This document shows, in pieces, positions 733 to 29,591 of a DNA stretch of 36,894 bases. The number at the start of each line of letters is the position of its first letter. Within the stretch, counting starts at the first letter, position 1. This stretch comes from Elusimicrobiota bacterium (lineage in GTDB: Bacteria > Elusimicrobiota > Elusimicrobia > Elusimicrobiales > UBA9959). The translations under genes and the position numbers were made by a program. Location of the stretch: positions 1-36,894 of the forward strand of contig DAOWGR010000023.1 in the NCBI GenBank assembly GCA_030637365.1. The letters are read 5' to 3'. The notes beneath the pieces were generated by a model. The model saw nothing but the letters and a program-made list of their open reading frames with translations, was not told the origin of the DNA and did no database searches.

Positions 733-796
733 AAATGTTCGCGATGAGATATTTTTTATCGGAAGGTTAATATTTGATAGAATATGTTTTTAATTG

Positions 797-848
797 CCCT
801 TCCCGCCCGCTTCTTTGCCGAATTGCGGTCTGTAAGCGAGTGGTGGGG
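797..848 (+). repeat. Short (about 52 nt) relative of the palindromic element found at 1766-1846 and 13710-13787
   Basis: Left arm CCTTCCCGCCCGCTT (798-812) pairs with right arm AAGCGAGTGGTGGGG (834-848): 10 Watson-Crick pairs, 3 G-U pairs, 2 mismatches. The right arm is 13/15 identical to AAGCGGGTGGTGGGA of the copy at 1832-1846. The interior is much shorter than in the two long copies. Confidence 0.4.
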
Positions 849-863
849 TTAGTGAGGTGCGAC

Positions 864-1052
864 ATGAAAAGAAAAGCGTTGGTTAAATATCTTGTGCAAC
901 AGGGTTGCAAACTTTTAAGGGAAGGCGGCAAGTATTCCATTTTTGTCAATTCCAAAACTGAAAAAGAAGTTCCGGTAACGAGACACACGGAAATCGCGGA
1001 TTTCACCGCAAGAAAAATATGCAAGGATTTAGGCGTAAAGCCCGTCAGATAA
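864..1052 (+). CDS. hicA: HicA/YcfA-family toxin-like protein (62 aa), no adjacent HicB
   Basis: ATG at 864 is preceded by GTGAGG. MKRKALVKYLVQQGCKLLREGGKYSIFVNSKTEKEVPVTRHTEIADFTARKICKDLGV fits the HicA pattern (REGGxH...V/PRHxEI...ARKIxxxLG). The ORF-track start at 774 is an upstream extension running through the repeat at 797-848. Confidence 0.75.
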   Translation: MKRKALVKYLVQQGCKLLREGGKYSIFVNSKTEKEVPVTRHTEIADFTARKICKDLGVKPVR

Positions 1053-1114
1053 CCCACACACTTACATATTGTCTACAGCTTATTTTAGAGAAAATTTCTA
1101 AGTATAATGTAAGT

Positions 1115-1534
1115 GTGAGGGTAAATTCATTATCGTTATCAATTAATTGGATAAGAATTTCCATAGTTTTATTTTCTTTTATTCTTTTTTGCGCTTGCGC
1201 GAGTAAAATGGATATTCTTCAAACCGGTCCGTGGTCTGATAAGCGCGATTTTAAAGATATTAAGCATTTTATATCAAGAAAACAAATTGAAAAGCCTTGG
1301 ATTGCCATAGCTGTTATTCGCGGCTATAAAGTTAATCCGTCTGATAGAAAAAGTATAAACAAACAGATTGAAAAGGCAAAAAAAATGGCCGCGGACATAG
1401 GAGCCGACGCGGTGGTATTGGAGGAGGGGGCGGTTCCTGAAAAAACTTCTTTTACTGAAGATATTGGGAAAGTTTTTTTAACGGGCATTGCCATAAAATA
1501 TGTTGCCGAAGATTACTCAAAACCAAAAAAATAA
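1115..1534 (+). CDS. Small secreted protein or lipoprotein, unknown function (start uncertain)
   Basis: Hydrophobic leader IRISIVLFSFILFCACAS has a lipobox-like FCAC, followed by a hydrophilic 100-aa domain. The ORF-track start at 1019 overlaps hicA, so GTG at 1115 is a more plausible start. No family recognised. Confidence 0.45.
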   Translation: MRVNSLSLSINWIRISIVLFSFILFCACASKMDILQTGPWSDKRDFKDIKHFISRKQIEKPWIAIAVIRGYKVNPSDRKSINKQIEKAKKMAADIGADAVVLEEGAVPEKTSFTEDIGKVFLTGIAIKYVAEDYSKPKK

Positions 1535-2321
1535 ATATTCCGTTCGAGTCGCCTATGACGCCGATGAGATTAAGAAATGGAATGGAAGAGTCATTGTCGT
1601 GGATTTATTCCGGTTCTCAAATACCGTTTGCGCTCTTATGGCAAGCGGGAGAAAAAACATAAAAGTGTATTCAGAACCCAAATTCGCAGTTATCGCTAAA
1701 AAAAACGCTAAAAACACCGATTTGTTTTCAGAGATTGATTTTCCAGCCATTGACAGATATGACAATCCCACCACCCGCTTATCCCGCTTAAAAGCGGGAT
1801 CAAAAAAAACAAGCGGCGCCAATGGCGCCGCAAGCGGGTGGTGGGACAATTCCCCGTATCTTGCCATGAATTCCACTGACGCCTCCAAGGACGCTATTAT
1901 CGTAACCTGTTCGGGCGCGAAAACGGTTATGGCCGCGCATTGCGCCAAAGAAATAATTATAGGCTGTTTTGCCAATATGCCGCAGCTTTGCGAATACGCG
2001 AAAAAAAATAAAATGAATACTCTGATAGCGCCGGCCTGTATTTTTTATGATAGAAATCATGTGGAAGATTTTATATGTTCGCGCGCTTTACAAGACGCGT
2101 TTAATGGAAAAGATACTTTTCACGCCGCTCTTGAAGAAATACATAAAAGTTCCAGAATTCTTGATTTTATGGCTTTTAGGCCGGAAAACGGAAGAAAAGA
2201 TATTGAAATGATATTGAAGAAAGGAACAATGAAAATTTTACCGAAGGTTGTTATAAGGGGAGTTTTTGCCGAGGTTTTTGATGTTTTAGGCTGTGAAGCG
2301 GGGGCGCGAAATGAAGTTTAA
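1500..2321 (+). CDS. 2-phosphosulfolactate phosphatase (ComB) family-like protein carrying a 28-codon palindromic-element insert
   Basis: VIVVDLFRFSNTV, D-NSP (split by the insert), VTCSGAKTV and VEDFICSRAL resemble the ComB/2-ph_phosp family layout. Overlaps the preceding ORF by 35 nt and queC by 11 nt. Confidence 0.6.
   Translation: MLPKITQNQKNKYSVRVAYDADEIKKWNGRVIVVDLFRFSNTVCALMASGRKNIKVYSEPKFAVIAKKNAKNTDLFSEIDFPAIDRYDNPTTRLSRLKAGSKKTSGANGAASGWWDNSPYLAMNSTDASKDAIIVTCSGAKTVMAAHCAKEIIIGCFANMPQLCEYAKKNKMNTLIAPACIFYDRNHVEDFICSRALQDAFNGKDTFHAALEEIHKSSRILDFMAFRPENGRKDIEMILKKGTMKILPKVVIRGVFAEVFDVLGCEAGARNEV
1766..1846 (+). repeat. 81-nt palindromic element (copy A), translated in frame within the ComB-like gene
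   Basis: Perfect 15-bp terminal inverted repeat, TCCCACCACCCGCTT (1766-1780) and AAGCGGGTGGTGGGA (1832-1846). Internal hairpins ATCCCGCTT/AAGCGGGAT (1781-1800) and GCGGCGCC-AAT-GGCGCCGC (1813-1831). A8 run at 1802-1809. Direct ACAAT at 1762-1766 and 1846-1850. Confidence 0.85.
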
Positions 2322-4231: not shown

Positions 4232-6133
4232 ATGGCAAACAAGAGGAATTTCATTTTTAGAGCTTTCTTTATGTTTTTTATCTCATTGCAATTGGCCGCG
4301 GGCCAATCGGCTATTGCTTTGGATAAAGATGATGAAATCGGAGATTACAGAGAAAAAATAATAAATACGGCCAGGGAGCTTGGCATTGGCGTTTATGAGG
4401 ATTGGCCCGTTGAATTTGCCTGCGAAGACAATGATTTTAAAAGCGAAGAAATTATTTTTTCAGAACCTGTAAATTTTGGACAAACTTTTGAAGTTCCGCC
4501 GCCGGCGTTCGCATACGCGGATGAAAACAATCAAAACGGCGTTGGCAAAGGGCAAAAATTTAAAATCGGTCAAACGGCGATTAAGCGTCATGATGTTTCC
4601 GCCGGGCGAGCCGCGCCAAAAACAGCGGTTGAAGAGAAGGCCGGAGAATCGTCTTTTTTTAGGAAAGTTTTCACCGGAGTCAAAAATTTCTTTGGTTCAA
4701 TCTTTAAAAAAAATGACCAAACGGAGTCTCAACGGACAAATCGGACTCGGATTTCAAACAAGGTTGAAAAAACCACTTTAGCCGATGAAGTCAAAATATT
4801 TGGATGTCTGGTTACTTTTTTTTACGCTCTTAAAGCCAAAATAATGGACTATGGTTTTTTGCCGTGGACTACCGCCGCTCCGTCATTTGATGAAATATCC
4901 AAAAACGCGATAGCCATGTTAAAAAATTCCGATTTCAAGCAGAGAAAGGCGGGTCAAACATCTTTGCTTAAAGAAGAAGGCTTTATAAAAGAATTGGAAA
5001 TATTATCCGGGGCCAAATTCACTGAAGGAAATACGGTAAAGTTTTTGGTAGACGGCGCGTCTTTCATTGTGAAGTATAAGTTTATAAGAGAGGCGAAAAA
5101 AAGCGTTCATATCGCCAATTACGCTTTTCACGACGATATTACCGGCAATGAAACCGCTGATATGCTTATAGCCAAGAAGAATGAGGGGCTTGATATTAAG
5201 ATAATCGTTGATCATAAAGTCGCTTACATGCTCGGAGGAAAAGTTATTAAACGCATGCAAAAAGCCGGCATAGAAATTTTGCGCTATATGGAATCTGACA
5301 GAACGGGGGATATTTGGCACGCAAAGTTGCAGATAGTGGATGATAAATACGCTATTGTCGGCGGCATGAATTATGGCGATTATTATTCGCATAAAAATCC
5401 CAATGGCCAAAAATGGCGAGATACCGATGTTCTTTATTTTGGCCCGGCCGTAATGGAGACAAAGAAAATCTTTGCCGAAGTTTGGAACAATATGGCCGCG
5501 GAAAAGGGTTTTGAACGCGTGGATATGAATATTCAGCCAAAACCGGATTTTAATGAAGGTTCTTCGCGCGTCGCCGTTGTTTATCAAAATCCTCCGGCGG
5601 CTTCATCCTCGCCGATACTTATGAGTATCCTTAAAGCCATTTACGGCGCGACTGAACGCGTTAACATTGAAAATGCTTATGTTATCGCCATTCCCGCCGT
5701 TAAATATGCCATATTGGATGCCAGAGCGCGAGGTGTTAAAGTAAATGTGCTGACCAATTCAAAGGAAAGCATAGATTGTGACGGTAAACCTATGGCTGAT
5801 GTTATAATTAAAGGACTTAGGCCGTTAATTCGCGCCGGCGTAAAAGTATACTTAAAAAAAGGCGATACGCTTCACAGCAAGTTTATGACTGTTGACGGTG
5901 TTTTTTGTTCCGTCGGCTCCTATAATTTGCATCCCAGGAGTGAAAGATTTGATACGGAATTAAATATAAACATTATCGATTCCGCGAGTGTCGGGCGGCT
6001 TGATTCAATATTCGCCAAAGATTTGGCCAAAGCCATTAAAATAAATTCCGTGGAAGATCTTAATTATAAGTCGAGCTGGTTGTCAAGAATAATAGAAAAA
6101 TATTTCTATGCCATCTTGTCTTCAAACAAATAA
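4232..6133 (+). CDS. Secreted phospholipase D / cardiolipin-synthase-like superfamily protein, copy 1 (two HKD motifs)
   Basis: Signal peptide FIFRAFFMFFISLQLAAGQSAIA. HKD motifs WHAKLQIVDDKYAIVGGMNY and LHSKFMTVDGVFCSVGSYNL. An N-terminal region of about 250 aa has no recognisable family. Confidence 0.85.
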   Translation: MANKRNFIFRAFFMFFISLQLAAGQSAIALDKDDEIGDYREKIINTARELGIGVYEDWPVEFACEDNDFKSEEIIFSEPVNFGQTFEVPPPAFAYADENNQNGVGKGQKFKIGQTAIKRHDVSAGRAAPKTAVEEKAGESSFFRKVFTGVKNFFGSIFKKNDQTESQRTNRTRISNKVEKTTLADEVKIFGCLVTFFYALKAKIMDYGFLPWTTAAPSFDEISKNAIAMLKNSDFKQRKAGQTSLLKEEGFIKELEILSGAKFTEGNTVKFLVDGASFIVKYKFIREAKKSVHIANYAFHDDITGNETADMLIAKKNEGLDIKIIVDHKVAYMLGGKVIKRMQKAGIEILRYMESDRTGDIWHAKLQIVDDKYAIVGGMNYGDYYSHKNPNGQKWRDTDVLYFGPAVMETKKIFAEVWNNMAAEKGFERVDMNIQPKPDFNEGSSRVAVVYQNPPAASSSPILMSILKAIYGATERVNIENAYVIAIPAVKYAILDARARGVKVNVLTNSKESIDCDGKPMADVIIKGLRPLIRAGVKVYLKKGDTLHSKFMTVDGVFCSVGSYNLHPRSERFDTELNINIIDSASVGRLDSIFAKDLAKAIKINSVEDLNYKSSWLSRIIEKYFYAILSSNK

Positions 6134-6150
6134 AAAGAACTTAACAGATT

Positions 6151-8094
6151 ATGGAAAGAATACAGAATATTAATTTGATAACCAAGAGGAATTTTATTTT
6201 CAGAACTTTCTTTATATTTGTTGTTTCATTGCAATTGGCCGCGGGACAATCGGCGATTGCTTTGGATAAAGATGCTGAAATCGGCGATTACAGAGAAAAG
6301 ATAATAAATACGGCCAAGGAGCTTGGCATTGGCGTTTATGAAGATTTGCCCGTTGAATTTGCCGGCGCCACAAGCGGGCGGCGGAATAATTATTCCAAAT
6401 ATGAAAAGTTTGTTTCTTCAAAAACTTTAAATTTTAGAAAAATACCTGAGGTTCCGCCGCCGGCGTTCGCATACGCGAATGAAAATAATCAAAACGGTTT
6501 TGGCAAAGGGAAAGAATTTAAAATTGATCAAACGGAGATTAAGCGTCATGATGTTTCCAATGGGCGCGCGATGCCAAAAACAGCGGCTGAAGAGAAGGCC
6601 GGCGAGCCGTCTTTTTTCGTGAAAGGTTTCACCGGAGTAAGAAATTTCTTTGGTTCAATCTTTAAAAAAAATGACCAAACGGATTCTCGGCGGCAGGTTT
6701 CAAGGAAAATTTCAAAACCGTCTGTCATTGACAATATCAGAGTATGCTGGGGTTATGTATTTAATCTCTTTCACGCCATGAGAGCTGTAATTGTCGATTC
6801 CGGTTTTTTGCCGGGCACTATCGCGGTTCCGTCATTTGATGAAATATCCAAAAACGCCATAGCTATGGTAAAAAATTCCGATTTTAAGCCGAGAAAAGCC
6901 GGACAGCCGTCTTTGCTTAAAGAAGAAGGCTTCATAAAAGAATTGGAAATATTATCCCAAGCGAAGTTTACCGAAGGCAATACGATTAAGTTTCTCATAG
7001 ACGGCAAAGTTTCTTTTGCCATGAAGGATAAACTTATGAAAGAAGCGAAAAAAAGCGTTTATATAGGAGCCTATCTCTTTTTTGACGATATAACCGGTAA
7101 TGAGACCGCCGATATACTTATAGCCAAGAAGAAACAAGGCCTTGATATTAAGATAATTGTTGATCATAAAATCGCTTGTGTGCTCGGAGCAAGAGTTATT
7201 AAACGCATGCAAAAAGCCGGCATAGAAATTTTGCGCTATATGGAATCTGACAGACGGGGGGATTATTGGCATGTAAAATTGTTGATAGTGGATGATAAAT
7301 ACGCTATTGTCGGCGGCATGAATTATGGCGATTATTATTCGCATAAAAATCCCGATGTCCAACAGTGGCGGGATACCGATGTTCTTTATTCCGGTCCGGC
7401 CGTAATGGAGACAAAGAAAATATTTGCCGAAGTTTGGAACAATATGGCCGTTGAGAAGGGGCTTGATTTTAAAAAAATAGATATGGATATTCAGCCAAAA
7501 CCGGATTTTAATGAAGGTTTTTCGCGCGTTGCCGTCGTTTATCAAAATCCTCCGGCGGCTTCATCGTCACCGATACTTTTAAGCATCCTTAAAGCCATTT
7601 ATGGCGCGACGGAGCGCGTTAATATTGAGAATGCCTATTTTATCGCGATTCCCGCTGTTGAGCAGGCTATATTGGATGCCAGAGTGCGAGGAGTGGAGGT
7701 AAATATCCTGACCAATTCCAAGAAAAGTATAAATGAGGGAGCTAAGCAATTCATGTCCGACGCCATACTTAAAAGTCTTCCGCCATTAGTGACGGCCGGC
7801 GTTAATGTGTATATAAAACAAGGAGATAATTTACACAGCAAATTTATGACTGTTGATGGCATTTTCAGCAGTATCGGTTCGTACAATCTTCAACCAAAAT
7901 GCGAAAGATATGAAACGGAATTAAATGTAAATATTATTGATGCCGCAAGTGTCGGGCGGCTTGACGCGGTATTCGCGAAAGACATATCCGAAGCAAAAAA
8001 AATAAATTCAATAGACGAACTTAATCATAATCCCGGTTGGTTGGCGCGAATATTGGAGAAGTATTTCTTTTCCATGCTTTCGCCGGAAAAATAA
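6151..8094 (+). CDS. Secreted PLD-superfamily protein, copy 2
   Basis: Paralogue of copy 1, starting 17 nt after its stop. HKD motifs WHVKLLIVDDKYAIVGGMNY and LHSKFMTVDGIFSSIGSYNL. TTG at 6175 is an alternative start that aligns with the copy 1 start. Confidence 0.85.
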   Translation: MERIQNINLITKRNFIFRTFFIFVVSLQLAAGQSAIALDKDAEIGDYREKIINTAKELGIGVYEDLPVEFAGATSGRRNNYSKYEKFVSSKTLNFRKIPEVPPPAFAYANENNQNGFGKGKEFKIDQTEIKRHDVSNGRAMPKTAAEEKAGEPSFFVKGFTGVRNFFGSIFKKNDQTDSRRQVSRKISKPSVIDNIRVCWGYVFNLFHAMRAVIVDSGFLPGTIAVPSFDEISKNAIAMVKNSDFKPRKAGQPSLLKEEGFIKELEILSQAKFTEGNTIKFLIDGKVSFAMKDKLMKEAKKSVYIGAYLFFDDITGNETADILIAKKKQGLDIKIIVDHKIACVLGARVIKRMQKAGIEILRYMESDRRGDYWHVKLLIVDDKYAIVGGMNYGDYYSHKNPDVQQWRDTDVLYSGPAVMETKKIFAEVWNNMAVEKGLDFKKIDMDIQPKPDFNEGFSRVAVVYQNPPAASSSPILLSILKAIYGATERVNIENAYFIAIPAVEQAILDARVRGVEVNILTNSKKSINEGAKQFMSDAILKSLPPLVTAGVNVYIKQGDNLHSKFMTVDGIFSSIGSYNLQPKCERYETELNVNIIDAASVGRLDAVFAKDISEAKKINSIDELNHNPGWLARILEKYFFSMLSPEK

Positions 8095-8175
8095 GAGTCC
8101 GTTTAAACAGTTTTTATTACCGTGTATGCTTTTTTTCTCCATATAATAACCGGAAGACACATTTGGAGTATTAAT

Positions 8176-10059
8176 ATGACAATCAAGGAAAACTTAATTT
8201 TTAAATTCTTTTTCGTATTTTTTATTTCATTGCGATTGGCCGCGGGACAACCGGCGATTGCTTTGGATAAAGATGATGAATTCGGCGATTATAGAGAAAA
8301 AATAATAAATACGGCCAGAGAGCTTGGCATTGGCGTTTATGAAGATTTGTCCGTTGAATTTGCCGGCGAAGAAATTATTTTTTCAGAACCTGTAAATTTC
8401 GGACAAACTTTTGAAGTTTCGCCGTCGGCATTCGCATACGCGGATGAAAACAATCAGAACGGCTTTGGCAAAGGGCAAGAATTTAAAATCGGTCAAACGG
8501 CGATTAAGCGTTATGATGTTTCCGCCGGGCGCGATATGCCAAAAACAGCGGTTGAAGAGAAGGCCGGAGAATCGTCTTTTTTTCGGGGATTTTTCACCGG
8601 AGTAAGAAATTTCTTTGGTTCAACTTTCAAAAAAAATAATCAAACAGATTCTCAGCGGACCGAGCAGCCTCAGATTCCAAAAAAGAAATCAAGTTCTTCT
8701 TTAGCCGATAAACTCACTGGAGGCATAGCTACTTTTTTTTACACTTTTAAAGCCAAAATAATGGATTCCGGCTTTTTTCCGTGGACCATTGCCGCTCCGT
8801 CATTTGATGAAATATCCAAGAATGCGATAGCTATGGTAAAAAATTCCGGTTTTAAGCCAAGAAAAGTCGGACAGACCTCTTTGCTTAAAGAAGAAGGCTT
8901 TATAAAAGAATTGGAAACATTGACGGGAGCTAAATTTACCGAAGGAAATACAGTGAAGTTTCTAATAGACGGCAAAGCATCTTTTGCTATAAGGGACAAG
9001 CTTATAAGAGAGGCGAAAAAAAGCGTTTATATCGGCACATTTATCTTTCACGATGATATTACCGGCAATGAAACCGCCGATATGCTTGTAGCCAAGAAGA
9101 ATGAGGGAGTTGATGTTAAAATAATTCTTGATCATAAAATTGCTTATATGCTCGGAACAAAAGTTATTAAACGCATGCAAAAAGCCGGAATAGAGATTAT
9201 ACGCCATATGGATTCAAAAAGAACAGGGGATTATTGGCATGTAAAATTGCTGATAGTGGATGATAAATACGCTGTTGTCGGCGGCATAAATTATGGCGAT
9301 TCATATTCTCATAAGGACCCCGACGGTCAAAAATGGCGAGATACCGATGTTTTTTATTCGGGTTTGGCCGTAATGGAGACAAAGAAAATTTTCGCCGAAA
9401 ATTGGAACAGTAAGGTGATGGAAAGTGGGCTTGATTTTGGAAAAGTGGATATGGATATTTCGCCAAGCCCGGGTTTCGATAAAGGTTCGGCTCGCATAGC
9501 GGTGGTTTTCCAAAATCCTCCCAATGCTTCCTCGTCACCGGTGCTTTTTAGTATCCTGAAGGCTATTTATGGCGCCACTGAGCGCGTTAATATTGAGAAT
9601 GCTTATTTTATCGCAATTCCGGCTGTCAGTCAGGCGATATTGGATGCCAAAGCGCGAGGCGTCAAAGTCAATATCCTGACCAATTCCGAGAAAACCATAG
9701 ACGGTGATTGTGACTATATGGCGAATTCCATAATCAAAGGACTTATACCGTTGATTCATGAAGGCATCAATGTATACTTAAAAAAAGGCAATACGCTTCA
9801 CAGTAAATTTATGACTGTTGACGGCGTTTTCTGCTCTATCGGTTCATATAATTTGCGCCCCAGGAGTGAAAGATACGATACGGAACTGAATGTCAATGTT
9901 ATAGACCATATATCCGTTAGGAAACTTGAGGAGGTGTTTGCTAAAGATATATCTGAAGCGACAAAAATAAATTCGGTGGAAGATCTTAATTATAAGCCGA
10001 CTTGGCTGTCAAAAATAATGGAAAAATATTTTTACGCCATGCTTTCGCCGGAAAAATAA
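8176..10059 (+). CDS. Secreted PLD-superfamily protein, copy 3
   Basis: ATG at 8176 is preceded by GGAG (8165-8168) and aligns with the starts of copies 1 and 2. HKD motifs WHVKLLIVDDKYAVVGGINY and LHSKFMTVDGVFCSIGSYNL. The ORF-track start at 8122 is an upstream extension. Confidence 0.85.
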   Translation: MTIKENLIFKFFFVFFISLRLAAGQPAIALDKDDEFGDYREKIINTARELGIGVYEDLSVEFAGEEIIFSEPVNFGQTFEVSPSAFAYADENNQNGFGKGQEFKIGQTAIKRYDVSAGRDMPKTAVEEKAGESSFFRGFFTGVRNFFGSTFKKNNQTDSQRTEQPQIPKKKSSSSLADKLTGGIATFFYTFKAKIMDSGFFPWTIAAPSFDEISKNAIAMVKNSGFKPRKVGQTSLLKEEGFIKELETLTGAKFTEGNTVKFLIDGKASFAIRDKLIREAKKSVYIGTFIFHDDITGNETADMLVAKKNEGVDVKIILDHKIAYMLGTKVIKRMQKAGIEIIRHMDSKRTGDYWHVKLLIVDDKYAVVGGINYGDSYSHKDPDGQKWRDTDVFYSGLAVMETKKIFAENWNSKVMESGLDFGKVDMDISPSPGFDKGSARIAVVFQNPPNASSSPVLFSILKAIYGATERVNIENAYFIAIPAVSQAILDAKARGVKVNILTNSEKTIDGDCDYMANSIIKGLIPLIHEGINVYLKKGNTLHSKFMTVDGVFCSIGSYNLRPRSERYDTELNVNVIDHISVRKLEEVFAKDISEATKINSVEDLNYKPTWLSKIMEKYFYAMLSPEK

Positions 10060-10114
10060 GAGGCGCGGAAGTTCGAAAGCGCGAAATACCGGATAGAAAC
10101 GGAATTATATAAAT

Positions 10115-10150
10115 AAATCGCAAATCCCCGGGATTTGCGATTTGTTTTTT
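10115..10150 (+). terminator. Rho-independent terminator after the PLD triplet
   Basis: AAATCGCAAATCCC / GGGATTTGCGATTT is a near-perfect palindrome followed by G-TTTTTT. Confidence 0.75.
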
Positions 10151-13623: not shown

Positions 13624-15501
13624 ATGGTTAAAAAAGTGCGTAAAAAAAACATCATTTTTTTTGGAATATTTTTATTGATTGGAGTTTTGGGCGCAAATGC
13701 CGCGGATAGTCCCACTATCCGCTTATCGACCGAAGGGCGATCAAAAAAAACAAGCGGCGCCAATAGAGCCGCAAGCGGGTGGCGGGACAGTTTTAATCCT
13801 GCCGGCTGGCAAACCAATAATAATTTTCCTTTAATAGGCTCGCCAAAAGCCAAAAAAGGCGGAACCATGCGTTTTTTTTGGCGCAGTTATCCCGCCACAT
13901 TAAGAACAAACGGCCCTAACGCGAATTTTTTTACCATTCAGGAAATTCAAAGCGTGGTTTATGAATCTTTAATTGATATTCATCCCGAGACAATGGAATA
14001 TATTCCCGGCCTTGCCGATTATTGGCGCGTGTCCCCAGATAAAAGAAAATTTTCATTTCATATAAATCCGAAAGCCGCATGGGCGGACGGAAGTCCGGTT
14101 ACGGCCGAGGATATTGTGGCCACTTGGGAATTTCGGACTCGCGCCGATATAAAAGATCCATATTCGGTTATGATGTGGGCCGATAATTTTGAAAAACCCA
14201 TAGCTGAAAGCGAATATGTTGTTTCGGTTAAAACAAAAAAACTTAATTGGCGTTTGTTTTTATATTTCGGCAGAATGGATATATATTCCGCCAAAGAAAT
14301 GAAAAAACTTGCCGGAAAAGAATATCTTAGGGACTATAATTGGAAGATGCAAATGGGTTCGGGTCCTTATGAATTAAAATCCGAAAACATTAAAAAAGGG
14401 CATTCTTTAATTATTACAAGGCGTGAGGATTATTGGGCCGCCAATGAGCGAAGAAATATCGGCGTTAATAATTTTGACGCGGTATCCTGGATTGTAATTT
14501 TGGATGAAGAATTGGCGTTTGAAAAATTTAAAAAAGGGGAGATTGATTTTTATTATGTTTCAAGGGCGCAGAGATGGGCAAATGAATGTGATTTTGACAA
14601 AATAAAAAAAGGCTGGATACAAAAGCGCAAAATTTATACTCAAGCTCCGGAAAGTTTTTTGGGTTTTGCTTTCAATATGAGAAAGCCGCCTTTTGATAAT
14701 CGCGACGTGAGAAAGGCTTTTTCTTTTCTTCTAAATCGCGAAAAGCTTTTAGACAAGCTTTTTTTTAATGAATACGCCTATATAGACACTTATTTTCCCG
14801 GCGGAGAATGGGGAAATCCAAATAATCCGAAAGTGCGACATAATCCGAGAAGAGCCGCCAAACTTCTTAAAAAGGCGGGATGGAAGAACAGGAATAAAGA
14901 GGGCTGGCTTATTAAAGACGGAAAAATTTTTGAACTGACGCTTGAATACGGGTTTAATGGCTGGACCAAGATTCATAAGGTTATCAAAGAAGATATGAAA
15001 AAAGCCGGAATTAAGCTTAATCTCAAATTGATTGATCCCAGAACCTTGATGAAGAAGGTAAATGAACGCAATTTTACCTTGCATTATAAACTATGGGGCG
15101 GCTTCCTGTTTCCAAATCCCGCCGTTATGTGGTCGTCTGAGCTTGCCGATGAAAAATATAATAATAATTTACCCGGATTTAGAAATGAGAAAGTTGACGC
15201 GCTATGCGCGAAATATGACCGCGCGTTTGACAGAGAAGAGCAGAAAAAAATCATAAAGAAGATTGATGCCGCGATTTTTAGGGAATATCCTTATGCGCTT
15301 TCATGGTATACCGATTTTAATCGTATTCTTTATGCCAATAAATTCGGTCATCCGAAAACATATTTTTCAAAGATTGGAGATTTTAGAGACATAAAAACAC
15401 TTTGGTGGCTGGACGCGCCCAAAGAAAAAGCTTTGTCTGAGGCTGTAAAAGAAAATAAGAGTTTGCCGGTTGGAAAAATCATCCAAAAGCCATGGAAATA
15501 G
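13624..15501 (+). CDS. yejA: ABC transporter substrate-binding protein, family 5, YejA-like, copy 1 (carries palindromic-element insert after signal peptide)
   Basis: Signal peptide IIFFGIFLLIGVLGANA, about 600 aa, paralogue of 15760-17541. Lies in an operon with YejB/YejE-like permeases. Confidence 0.85.
   Translation: MVKKVRKKNIIFFGIFLLIGVLGANAADSPTIRLSTEGRSKKTSGANRAASGWRDSFNPAGWQTNNNFPLIGSPKAKKGGTMRFFWRSYPATLRTNGPNANFFTIQEIQSVVYESLIDIHPETMEYIPGLADYWRVSPDKRKFSFHINPKAAWADGSPVTAEDIVATWEFRTRADIKDPYSVMMWADNFEKPIAESEYVVSVKTKKLNWRLFLYFGRMDIYSAKEMKKLAGKEYLRDYNWKMQMGSGPYELKSENIKKGHSLIITRREDYWAANERRNIGVNNFDAVSWIVILDEELAFEKFKKGEIDFYYVSRAQRWANECDFDKIKKGWIQKRKIYTQAPESFLGFAFNMRKPPFDNRDVRKAFSFLLNREKLLDKLFFNEYAYIDTYFPGGEWGNPNNPKVRHNPRRAAKLLKKAGWKNRNKEGWLIKDGKIFELTLEYGFNGWTKIHKVIKEDMKKAGIKLNLKLIDPRTLMKKVNERNFTLHYKLWGGFLFPNPAVMWSSELADEKYNNNLPGFRNEKVDALCAKYDRAFDREEQKKIIKKIDAAIFREYPYALSWYTDFNRILYANKFGHPKTYFSKIGDFRDIKTLWWLDAPKEKALSEAVKENKSLPVGKIIQKPWK
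13710..13787 (+). repeat. 78-nt palindromic element (copy B), translated in frame within yejA-like copy 1
   Basis: Arms TCCCACTATCCGCTT (13710-13724) and AAGCGGGTGGCGGGA (13773-13787): 12 Watson-Crick pairs, 2 G-U pairs, 1 mismatch. It has the same A8 run (13743-13750) and the same internal order as copy A. It is absent from the paralogue at 15760. Confidence 0.85.
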
Positions 15502-15526
15502 TTCCTTTAAAAACGGAACTATTTCC
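15494..15526 (+). promoter_or_regulatory. Stop-codon-spanning hairpin after yejA copy 1 (no T-run)
   Basis: GGAAATAGTTCC (15494-15505) and GGAACTATTTCC (15515-15526) form a perfect 12-bp stem with a 9-nt loop. The stem includes the TAG stop. Confidence 0.5.
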
Positions 15527-15759
15527 AAGTCACCAGTCACCATGTCTCCAGAATTTGGTAATTAGTAAATGGAAGTTTCGTTAATTAACATCTGTCCTTT
15601 GTTTCTGTTTTTTTGTTCCGTATCGCTGCCACGCTGTAGCTCTGCCGCGCTGTTTCTGTCTCTTTGTAATAAGTTTCTATATTTGATAGTTTATTAACAG
15701 TATTGGGAATTACCAAAAATTTGAGTTCTTATTTTTTTAAAACGAGGTGAAAAACGCGT

Positions 15760-17541
15760 ATGAAAAATATTGTTTTAGCAGGAATTTTTTTACTGTTTGG
15801 GGCATTTGGTTCAAACGCTTTGGCGGATGTTTTTAATCCCGCCGGATGGGACAGCAATAATGATTTTCCTCTGATAGGTTCGCCAAAAGCCCAGAAGGGC
15901 GGCGAGCTTCGTTATTACTGGCAAAGTTTTCCTCCCACATTAAGAACTGAGGGGCCAAATTCAAATTTTGTGCCCAATAATGAGGTTCAAAGTTTGATGT
16001 ATGAATCATTGGTAGGTCTTCATCCCACAACATTGGAATATATTCCGGGACTTGCAAATTACTGGAAGATATCCGCTGACAAAAGAAAGTTTTCATTTCA
16101 TGTAAATCCAAAAGCCGCATGGGCTGACGGCAGCCCCGTTACCGCCGAGGATGTGGTCGCCACTTGGGAATTTCGTATTCGCGAAGATATAAAAGATCCG
16201 TATTCGGTTATGATGTGGGGCGGAAGTTTTGAAAAGCCCGTTGCTGAAAGCAAATATGTGGTTTCGGTAAAGACAAAAGAACTTAATTGGCGTTTATTTT
16301 TATATTTCGGCGGTATGGCGATATATCCGGCTAAAGAAATGAAAGTTCTTACAGGAGAGAAATATCTTAAGGATTATAACTGGAAAATGCAAATGGGTTC
16401 GGGGCCTTATGAAGTAAAACCTGAAAATATTACAAAGGAACATTCTCTGGTTGTTACAAGGCGCGAGGATTATTGGGCCGTCAATGAGCGAAGAAATATC
16501 GGCATTAATAATTTTGATAAAATATCATGGAAAGTTATTTTAGATGAAGAATTGGCTTTTGAGAAATTTAAAAAAGGCGAGATTGATTATTATTATGTCA
16601 ATAAATCACAGAGATGGATTGAGGAATGCGATTTTGACAAAATAAAAAAAGGCTGGGTTCAAAAGAGAAAAATTTATACACAAGCGCCGAAAGGTTTTGG
16701 CGGTTTTGTTTTTAATATGAGAAAGCCGCCTTTTAACAATCGCAATGTCAGAAAGGCCTTTTCTTTTCTTTTTAACCGCGAAAGACTTATAGATAAGCTT
16801 TTTTTTAATGAATATGATTATATAGACAGCTATTATCCCGGTGGAGATTGGGGTAATTCCGATAATCCGAAAATTCGTTATAATCCGCGCCGAGCCGCAA
16901 GGCTTCTTAAAAGAGCCGGTTGGACAAATAGAAACAAAGACGGCTGGCTTGTCAATAAAGACGGAGAAATTTTTGAATTGACTCTTGAATATGGTCAGCA
17001 AGGGTCTACCAGAATTCATAAGGTTATCAAAGAGGAGATAGAAAAAGCGGGAATTAAATTTAATCTTAAATTGATTGATTCCAGAACTTTAATGAAAAAA
17101 GTCAGTGAACGCAAGTTTACTATTCATTTTCAAAGTTGGAGAGCTACATTGTTTCCAAATCCGAAGAGTTCGTGGAATTCAGAGCTTGCCGGAGCGCACA
17201 CAAATAATCTTCCGGGTTTTAAGAATAAAGGAGTGGATGAATTGTGTAAAAAATATAATGTTACATTTGACAGGGCGGAGCAGAAAAAGATTATAGGGGA
17301 AATAGACGGCATAATTTTTAGAGTTCATCCGTATGCTCTTGGATGGTATGGTAATAATAGTCGTGTTCTTTATGAGAATAAATTCGGACATCCTAAAGAG
17401 TATTTTTCAAAAATTGGCGATTACAATGATATAAAAACTTTTTGGTGGTATGATAGGGCAAAAGAAAAAGCTTTATCTGAAGCTATAAAGAGTAATAAAA
17501 GTTTGCCTATCGGAAAAACCATCCAAAAACCGTGGAAATAA
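15760..17541 (+). CDS. yejA: ABC transporter substrate-binding protein, family 5, YejA-like, copy 2
   Basis: Signal peptide IVLAGIFLLFGAFGSNALA. Collinear with copy 1 and highly similar throughout the mature domain. Confidence 0.9.
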   Translation: MKNIVLAGIFLLFGAFGSNALADVFNPAGWDSNNDFPLIGSPKAQKGGELRYYWQSFPPTLRTEGPNSNFVPNNEVQSLMYESLVGLHPTTLEYIPGLANYWKISADKRKFSFHVNPKAAWADGSPVTAEDVVATWEFRIREDIKDPYSVMMWGGSFEKPVAESKYVVSVKTKELNWRLFLYFGGMAIYPAKEMKVLTGEKYLKDYNWKMQMGSGPYEVKPENITKEHSLVVTRREDYWAVNERRNIGINNFDKISWKVILDEELAFEKFKKGEIDYYYVNKSQRWIEECDFDKIKKGWVQKRKIYTQAPKGFGGFVFNMRKPPFNNRNVRKAFSFLFNRERLIDKLFFNEYDYIDSYYPGGDWGNSDNPKIRYNPRRAARLLKRAGWTNRNKDGWLVNKDGEIFELTLEYGQQGSTRIHKVIKEEIEKAGIKFNLKLIDSRTLMKKVSERKFTIHFQSWRATLFPNPKSSWNSELAGAHTNNLPGFKNKGVDELCKKYNVTFDRAEQKKIIGEIDGIIFRVHPYALGWYGNNSRVLYENKFGHPKEYFSKIGDYNDIKTFWWYDRAKEKALSEAIKSNKSLPIGKTIQKPWK

Positions 17542-21330: not shown

Positions 21331-21375
21331 CTCCCGAATCGGAAATTTGTTTAAAACAAATTTCTTATTCGGGAG
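21331..21375 (+). promoter_or_regulatory. Long intercistronic hairpin between the two ATPase genes
   Basis: CTCCCGAAT-CGG-AAATTTGTTT ... AAACAAATTT-CTT-ATTCGGGAG gives 9 bp plus about 10 bp of stem around a 3x3 internal loop. It lies in a 118-nt gap inside the operon. Confidence 0.5.
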
Positions 21376-29503: not shown

Positions 29504-29591
29504 CGGAAGGGGAGGGATTCGAACCCTCGAAAGCCATTAAGACTTTACCGGTTTTCAAGACCGGCTCCTTAAACCGCTCGGACACCCTTCC
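29504..29591 (-). tRNA. tRNA-Ser (anticodon UGA), class II with long variable arm
   Basis: Minus strand reads GGAAGGG-TG-TCC-GAGCGGTTTAA-GGA-G-CCGGT-CTTGAAA-ACCGG-TAAAGTCTTAATGGCTTTC-GAGGG-TTCGAAT-CCCTC-CCCTTCC-G. The 7-bp acceptor, 3-bp D stem, 5-bp anticodon stem, 6-bp variable stem, T-arm and G73 all fold. CCA is not encoded. Confidence 0.95.

Follow-up and report, generated by a model that had tools for sequence, protein, structure and literature searches.

In the passages of two reports that deal with them (PMC10969869, PMC3184786), Rickettsia palindromic elements (RPEs) are described as short palindromic repeats that lie in frame within unrelated housekeeping genes and encode a conserved peptide; the same passages, following Ogata et al. 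2000, describe them as tolerated at fold-neutral positions, with filled and empty sites among relatives. Miniature transposable elements with inverted repeats (MITEs) known from bacteria include Correia/NEMIS of Neisseria, RUP and BOX of pneumococcus, ERIC, and QMITE1/2 of Coxiella (PMC3184786, PMC5896051, PMC3049150), and REP/REPIN and IS200/IS605-derived elements are extragenic repeats without terminal inverted repeats or target duplications, mostly marked by a GTAG/CGTC tag (PMC3733652). The 36,894-nucleotide stretch of Elusimicrobiota DNA analysed here (the window) carries, within the first of two tandem yejA-like genes, an 81-nt segment that is a real, discrete in-frame insertion of a mobile palindrome. 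It is best read as belonging to a new family that behaves like RPEs: a copy of a non-autonomous, MITE-like transposable element, inserted by transposition and tolerated in frame (probability roughly 0.8). As far as seen, the family is confined to one lineage of Elusimicrobiota.

Insertion in a yejA-like gene

The window is AT-rich (G+C content 40%), and the nearest homologues of its proteins come from metagenome-assembled genomes (MAGs) named Elusimicrobia or Elusimicrobiales by their source. Downstream of the interrupted gene, yejA-like copy 1 (Table 1), lies a tandem paralogue at 15760-17541; the product of copy 1 reads ANAADSPTIRLSTEGRSKKTSGANRAASGWRDSFNPAGW where that of the paralogue reads SNALADVFNPAGW. 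The first-pass annotation, made from the sequence alone, had proposed that 27 codons are extra in copy 1 as a clean indel and that the paralogue is an empty-site control, and both proposals hold. The nucleotide alignment of the two genes contains a single block gap, of net 78 nt rather than 81, since an additional codon lies close by in the paralogue. Orthologues are the better control and are likewise empty, in L043, L044, L045 and L046. The syntenic orthologue in L043 (GCA_964534135.1) reads GCA AAT GCC ACG GAT AGT TTT AAT, an exact empty site, where the window reads GCA AAT GCC GCG GA-TAG-(78 nt)-CAG-TTT AAT, an indel of exactly 81 nt. Together, the 78-nt element and a 3-bp duplication add exactly 27 codons just past the signal peptide, and the closest YejA orthologues (P0003 to P0006, 598-599 amino acids or partial, against 625 in the window) are all without these 27 residues. 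Loss by deletion in the orthologues would need the exact removal of the element and one repeat in four separate genomes.

Table 1. Coordinates in the window of the host gene, the parts of element copy B, its empty counterpart and the other element copies.
Feature	Position	Strand	Remarks
Host gene, yejA-like copy 1	13624..15501	+	SBP_bac_5/YejA-like periplasmic binding protein; intact; Pfam PF00496
Element copy B, 78-nt palindrome in frame in yejA-like copy 1	13710..13787	+	Covariance model (R1); absence from orthologues
Target-site duplication, left half TAG	13707..13709	+	Empty site in L043 is a single GA-TAG-TTTT
Target-site duplication, right half CAG	13788..13790	+	One T-to-C change after insertion
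Empty site in tandem paralogue, GAT GTT TTT	15826..15834	+	
Left terminal inverted repeat, outer-stem 5' arm TCCCACTATCCGCTT	13710..13724	+	
Right terminal inverted repeat, outer-stem 3' arm AAGCGGGTGGCGGGA	13773..13787	+	
Hairpin 1, ATCGACC GAA GGGCGAT, one A.G mismatch	13725..13741	+	Fold; covariance model
A-rich single-stranded spacer CAAAAAAAACAA	13742..13753	+	T-run on reverse strand
Hairpin 2, GCGGCGCC AAT AGAGCCGC, partly decayed in copy B	13754..13772	+	Fold; covariance model
Element copy A, 81 nt, in frame in ComB-like gene (2-phosphosulfolactate phosphatase family) 1500-2321	1766..1846	+	Covariance model; gene Pfam PF04029
Duplication of copy A, CAA	1763-1765 and 1847-1849		
Short, partly deleted variant	797..848	+	Between hicA promoter-like region and ribosome-binding site; duplication TTG 794-796 / TTA 849-851
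Decayed AT-rich copy exactly at hicA stop codon	1053..1121	+	Duplication TAA 1050-1052 / 1122-1124; covariance model 18.7 bits, E = 0.017

That no mobile element is involved, the segment having arisen by chimeric assembly, by duplication of local sequence or in place as a lineage-specific low-complexity linker, might be suspected because the window is a metagenome assembly and YejA homologues vary in protein length around the insert region. However, the identical sequence is present in L001 and L048, ENA assemblies made independently from two samples, so copy B is no assembly artefact; element sequences 82-89% identical occur in two unrelated genes, and another in an intergenic spacer of a different genus-level lineage; and the boundaries are exact, with a duplicated target. 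These results refute the non-mobile explanation.

A covariance model built from four copies was used to find further copies, and additional searches comprised one metagenome pattern scan and a HMMER search with the encoded peptide against 1.84 billion representative proteins. About ten copies were found, half of them intragenic, at no fewer than six distinct insertion sites (at least six) in four or five genomes (the window, L044, L047, L049 and L035). The window holds four: A, B and those at 797-848 and 1053-1121. Copy B is, as first annotated, the second in-frame copy of the element; it is 82.6% identical to copy A, has the same phase, and differs by a 3-nt indel in hairpin 1. The ComB site that holds copy A is also filled in L044 (TAA/TAA; CAA/CAA in the window) and empty in L043 (TAT GAT AAT TCT). 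Upstream of hicA, the short variant of the window is orthologous to L044 3012-3071 (covariance-model score 33.9 bits, E = 1.2e-6), and L043 has no insertion there (TTTAATTAGTGAGG); the window copy at the stop codon of hicA (16-nt arms, 94% complementary) has a counterpart at 3275-3352 of L044. Another in-frame copy interrupts the gene of an HI0933-like flavoprotein (P0121, in L047; TAA/TAA), the closest orthologue of which, P0123, reads WDKTSF across the insertion site. A short variant lies in the fba leader of L049 (TAA/TAA), at a site that is empty in L050 and L047, and an intergenic copy was found in L035, the Elusimicrobia bacterium CG08_land MAG (50% G+C). L043 and L051 (one MAG) are empty at every site. 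Visible decay affects several copies: copy B, in its hairpin 2, and the two that lie downstream of hicA (33-43% G+C). Among viral contigs there was one chance match to the element and none to its 18-nt end, and a plasmid collection gave no element match.

Three candidates were rejected as element copies: the HMMER match P0122, which is a low-complexity repeat protein; a 373-residue fba call in L051, which has an over-extended start; and length differences among PLD-like paralogues, which are small local indels. The toxin gene hicA (864-1052) is bracketed by two element copies in the window (794-1124) and in L044 (3012-3352), and has neither in L043; it looks like an orphan, with no hicB partner recognised adjacent to it.

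Target duplication, fold and reading frame

With the element ends defined so as to include a terminal T...A pair outside CCC...GGG, a 3-bp duplication fits ten sites, two of them with a single mismatch and one (L035, TGAA) needing 4 bp. The flanks of copy B, ATAGT and ACAGT, had been likened in the first-pass annotation to a duplication; they do contain a true target duplication, but one of 3 bp (TAG/CAG), which together with the T...A pair of the element fits the ten sites better than 5 bp. A 5-bp, ATAAT-like duplication fails at five sites and was rejected, as the short variants and the stop-codon copies fit only 3 bp; IS1380-type and Tn3-type parents, which had rested on it, were dropped. 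The duplicated triplets are TAA/TAA at four sites, TGA/TGA downstream of hicA in L044, TTA/TTA and TTG/TTA upstream of hicA, TAG/CAG at copy B and CAA/CAA at copy A: T is first at 8 of the 10 sites and A is last at most, with CAA and TAG also occurring. At four sites (YejA, ComB, upstream of hicA and upstream of fba), filled versions have two triplets and empty versions one. The target duplication is genuine, 3 bp long and mostly TNA-like. At the five long-variant sites, T is the first duplicated base in all five, GA or TA directly precedes the duplication, and the enrichment of A at -1 (5/5, p = 0.002) and of G at -2 (4/5, p = 0.01) completes the set of preferences from which GA^TRR was derived as the preferred target.

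Flanks of this kind might instead reflect mobilisation by a Y1 (HUH) transposase in the form of single-stranded DNA, as for REP/REPIN or IS200/IS605-derived elements, the apparent duplication being a fixed left target and a similar right cleavage motif. Two subterminal hairpins with conserved structure and variable sequence, a strict orientation, and flanking trinucleotides that are alike (TAA, TAG, TGA) would suit such a mechanism. However, the triplets vary by site (TAA, TAG, TGA, TTA, CAA) while their halves match and the empty sites are single, as in a true duplication. IS200/IS605-derived elements have no inverted repeats and a fixed tetra- or pentanucleotide target that is not duplicated, whereas the element has 15-bp terminal inverted repeats, absent from IS200/IS605 ends, and variable duplicated triplets. 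REP/REPIN sequences are extragenic and unduplicated and carry the GTAG or CGTC tag that is the mark of most REPs (PMC3733652), whereas here the ends are TCCC.../...GGGA with no such tag, the target is duplicated, and half of the copies are intragenic. Mobilisation by a Y1 enzyme is therefore very improbable.

The terminal inverted repeats of the family are 15 bp long (TCCCACCACCCGCTT / AAGCGGGTGGTGGGA), with the end sequence TCCCACCACCCGCTTATC. The element is 76-81 nt long (52-66 nt in the short variants), has no transposase gene of its own, and is GC-rich within an AT-rich genome. All good copies share a Y-shaped fold made of a 15-pair outer stem, a 7-bp hairpin, an A-rich spacer of 12-15 nt and an 8-bp hairpin. 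The arms of copy A are 100% complementary over 15 bp, with Watson-Crick pairs throughout; those of copy B have 12 of 15 positions paired, all but T13716:G13781, T13718:G13779 and A13714:C13783. These arms and exceptions, and the A8 run at 13743-13750, are just as first annotated. Folding of the sense strand yields -34.3 kcal/mol (z = -4.9) for copy B and -54.9 kcal/mol (z = -9.8) for copy A, and the covariance model scores them at 91 bits (E = 2.6e-22) and 98.5 bits, with E-values of 1e-22 to 1e-24; the palindrome is far beyond chance. In an alignment of six copies that was fitted to the covariance model and is hence biased toward structure, 93.7% of paired cells are complementary, compared with 38-50% in slid controls, compensatory two-sided changes affect 10 of 30 pairs, and none of 500 shuffles matches any observed pairing measure. 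Helix 1 is 98.9% paired over the six copies, compensatory changes among copies affect 4 of the 7 pairs of hairpin 1, and hairpin 2 of L035, misaligned in the model alignment, yet pairs when parsed by hand. The structure of the palindrome is maintained by compensatory change, and such changes are unable to separate a DNA-level from an RNA-level palindrome. The first-pass annotation had seen in the G-U pairs of copy B a weak hint of structure in the sense RNA. This was not borne out: over three helices in five good copies, read on the sense strand, there are seven mismatches of G-U type and five of A-C type (binomial p = 0.77), and an excess of C-to-T changes on the non-template strand would give the same pattern without any RNA function.

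A tRNA at 29504-29591 is the window's only Rfam match at gathering level; the best scores for element copies in E-value mode, 13-21 bits, fall short of the thresholds (50-125), and no family matches. As identities for the element, integron attC sites and ribozyme cores (hammerhead and others) were rejected, there being no conserved core, no R'/R'' motifs and no Rfam match.

Every copy is in the sense orientation relative to its gene or operon; the copy in L047 was found with a sense-frame peptide query, and the unbiased count is 4/4 (p = 0.125). In a consensus scan, the minus strand of copy A matches an intrinsic terminator (a hairpin of 8 G-C pairs with a 3-nt loop, then the tail TTGTTTTTTT), and that of copy B, with its decayed hairpin 2, gives no match. 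The uniform orientation is plausibly explained by the reverse strand of an intact copy reading as a terminator: to judge from sequence, a copy inserted antisense within a transcription unit would probably have a polar effect, and then be lost.

Including the duplication, the coding copies measure 84, 81, 81 and 84 nt, all multiples of three, unlike the intergenic copy of L035. All five long copies are open in frame +1, and the YejA-like, ComB-like and HI0933-like hosts use the same frame, which encodes the peptide PT(T/I)RLS...SGW(W/R)D. In copy B the predicted insert peptide includes PTIRLSTEGRSK, with junctions ADSPTIR and GWRDSFNPAGW. Copies A and B do share a codon phase, each beginning with CCC, as had been pointed out, but this is no separate property of the element; it is largely forced by the target, because with GA^TRR only the GAT-RRx phase lacks a stop codon. 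In the phase xGA-TAA the target itself is a stop codon, and in the phase xxG-ATA-A the element is read in a stop-containing frame.

An alternative is that the insert is not translated, either through ribosome bypass, as in gene 60 of phage T4 or Magnusiomyces byp elements, or through removal from the mRNA, the direct repeats serving as take-off and landing sites. A very stable hairpin flanked by short direct repeats within a coding sequence does resemble the byp elements, mitochondrial sequences reportedly described by Lang et al. in PNAS in 2014. However, bypass would lift the constraint on frame, whereas each of the four coding copies, taken with its duplication, is divisible by three in length and leaves the host frame free of stops, and the one clearly intergenic copy is not so divisible; no stop codon follows the codon at which take-off would occur; and the flanking repeats of copy B no longer match (TAG against CAG). 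The chance that the insert escapes translation in this way is slight indeed, smaller than that of Y1 mobilisation.

The N-terminus of the copy 1 product has a basic n-region, a hydrophobic core and a predicted cleavage site at ANA|AD; the insert begins three residues past this site and occupies about residues 30-56. An AlphaFold2 model based on a 67-sequence alignment has a mean pLDDT of 90.2, with residues 1-53 below 50 and the body above 90 from about residue 57. In the AlphaFold model of the HI0933-like P0121 (mean pLDDT 91.9), only residues 142-166, the insert, fall below 50, between two strands. According to these models, the inserts lie where least harm to the fold would be expected.

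Proposed transposition and competing readings

The reading of copy B as a transposed element would entail a transposase acting in trans, assumed to come from outside the window, that makes a staggered cut with a preference for GA^TRR and duplicates 3 bp; copy B would have landed at GA^TAG, three codons past the predicted signal-peptide cleavage. Persistence may then depend on three filters: the element plus duplication would have to be a multiple of three in length, the GAT-RRx phase would have to supply the sole consistently stop-free frame, and the sense orientation would have to place the A-run, and not a hairpin-plus-T-run terminator, in the mRNA. The insert would be transcribed and translated as a tolerated, disordered N-terminal tail of 27 residues. 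We infer both the chemistry of transposition and selection as the cause of orientation and phase. The filters amount to a survival rule for insertions (correct orientation, correct phase and multiple-of-three length), which is testable: the reverse orientation should terminate transcription.

Several observations weigh against this account. Roughly 250 kb of Elusimicrobia DNA yielded neither a transposase (by Pfam listings) nor a complete insertion sequence bearing these ends. The copy total is only about ten; the central hairpin-2 pattern gave 24 matches in 185,579 species genomes, all due to chance (in GC-rich genomes and limited to the pattern), and the arm pattern gave 16 in JGI metagenomes, 15 due to chance and one the true copy in L035. 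Both internal hairpins are structurally conserved, and a transposase reading only the terminal repeats would not need them. Translation of the insert is a prediction. Finally, copies at the same site in sister genomes differ in unexpected ways. By gene identities, the window is nearer to L044 than to the all-empty L043, so the shared ComB and hicA copies could be ancestral. Both halves of the ComB duplication are CAA in the window (1763-1849) and TAA in L044 (3964-4047), and the duplication at the hicA stop codon is TAA/TAA in the window (1050-1124) and TGA/TGA in L044 (3272-3355). Copy A has an identity of 0.89 to the copy in L047, 0.85 to copy B and 0.78 to the same-site copy of L044, and its hairpin-1 subtype is different from that of the latter. 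One ancestral insertion followed by neutral drift fails to predict these differences; they suggest that the sites were filled anew independently or that copies underwent conversion, either of which would explain them. The target motif occurs 9.6 times per kb and is therefore inadequate, by itself, to account for re-insertion at the same site.

A bolder reading is that of an RPE-like system in these Elusimicrobiota, in which at least two unrelated families of structured mini-elements time and again add peptide modules to housekeeping proteins, the Y-shaped fold of the present family is actively kept up once inserted, sites are re-occupied independently in sister lineages, and the reverse strand is a portable terminator that silences antisense transcription through the host gene; we consider this possible but unlikely. 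A little less likely again is that the host keeps the element as a functional structured module, either an insulator that terminates antisense transcription or a stabiliser or regulator of mRNA, with mobility secondary. All three helices are kept by compensation across genomes of 37-50% G+C, and when the copies that the window and L044 have at one shared site are compared, 5 of the 12 unpaired spacer positions differ and about 8 of the 60 stem positions, with half of the stem changes compensated. The sense orientation of every copy, the canonical terminator on the reverse strand, and the short variants in the 5' leaders of hicA and fba would also fit a function. On the other hand, the element is patchy among close relatives, L043 and L051 being empty at every site, and several copies are decaying; G-U mismatches show no excess over A-C on the sense strand; the unbiased orientation count is small; and quasi-palindrome correction or conversion between copies would give compensated changes without selection. 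Insertion by transposition, with tolerance in frame, remains the preferred reading.

Other repeats were noted in these genomes. A second, unrelated family of in-frame palindromes, absent from the window, occurs in HI0933-like genes (L049 5560-5646 and 5755-5844, L050 6250-6339), with inserts of 87-90 nt, ends GCCCCATTAGAAAT / ATTTCTAACGGGGC and the peptide APL(E/K)...FLTGQ; one gene has two copies. A third kind of insert, of 22 residues (ETPMSNKRGSGSESSETKALGD), is found at another position of the HI0933-like family in P0123 (protein only; alignment columns 264-285). The spacer between two ABC ATPase genes of the window holds a near-perfect palindrome with 22-nt arms at 21331-21375 (CTCCCGAATCGGAAATTTGTTT / AAACAAATTTCTTATTCGGGAG), and the ABC ATPase spacer of L044 a different, GC-rich one (CTATGGCGGGG...CCCCGCCATAG). 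Repeated GC-rich units (GGCCATAGGC / GGCATAGC) in the spacer of the yejA paralogues of L043 (11750-12080), absent from the window, L044 and L045, are another small repeat family. At 4232-10059 of the window are three tandem PLD-like (PLDc_2) secreted paralogues of roughly 640 residues, 72-90% identical in DNA, in which small indels cluster in one N-terminal segment. Hairpins with 16-18-nt arms at 10111-10147 and 15493-15527, after or across the stop codons of the third PLD paralogue and yejA copy 1, are likely to be ordinary terminators or stabilisers.

Relation to described repeat families

No paper linking Elusimicrobia with such elements was found in the literature. Like REP/REPIN and IS200/IS605-derived elements, the family consists of small GC-rich hairpin repeats in which structure is kept over sequence and orientation is biased. 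Its 3-bp, mostly T-N-A duplication (TAA, TGA, TTA, TAG) is like that of IS5-type elements of the IS1031 kind; 3-bp TNA or TWA duplications are made by DDE enzymes of the IS5 family (IS1031-type) and, in eukaryotes, of PIF/Harbinger, according to ISfinder. By this analogy, an IS5-type (IS1031-like) enzyme may be a lead to the parent element, rather than a classification of it.

The family has the characteristics of MITEs: small size without a transposase gene, terminal inverted repeats, filled and empty versions of a duplicated target, and several unrelated loci. As in classical MITEs, copies are below 200 bp, non-coding when alone, with stem-forming inverted repeats and short duplications, occasionally fused in frame, and co-transcribed. 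Unlike classical MITEs, they are unrelated in sequence, adopt a compact Y-fold with two covarying internal hairpins, are GC-rich in an AT-rich genome, have a high share of the copies seen in coding sequence, and have no known partner insertion sequence. SPRITE is likewise a mobile repeat with a terminator-like fold that constrains its placement relative to transcription; it is AT-rich, about 105 bp long and, in the terminating orientation, over-represented downstream of convergent genes (PMC3049150), whereas here the terminator-like face is on the untranscribed strand and copies lie inside transcription units.

The closest parallel is with RPEs. The insertion in frame of a palindrome into unrelated genes (three hosts), the conserved peptide it encodes, its fold-neutral sites and the polymorphism of filled and empty sites are all RPE-like, and the insertion of such elements in essential genes, best known from Rickettsia, is thereby extended to the free-living and poorly studied Elusimicrobiota. 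For annotation, the family accounts for odd low-confidence segments of 27-28 residues in otherwise conserved Elusimicrobia proteins. We know of no sequence relation between this element and RPEs, the comparison having been made by description only: RPEs are 105-150 bp long and belong to an alphaproteobacterial genus, whereas the element here is 76-81 nt long and belongs to Elusimicrobiota. It also differs from RPEs in its clear 15-bp inverted repeats, its 3-bp duplication, its target preference, and its intergenic and 5'-leader copies; because clean filled and empty sites are seen here alongside a target preference and a duplication that is defined, the mechanism of insertion can, unlike in the RPE case, be worked out.

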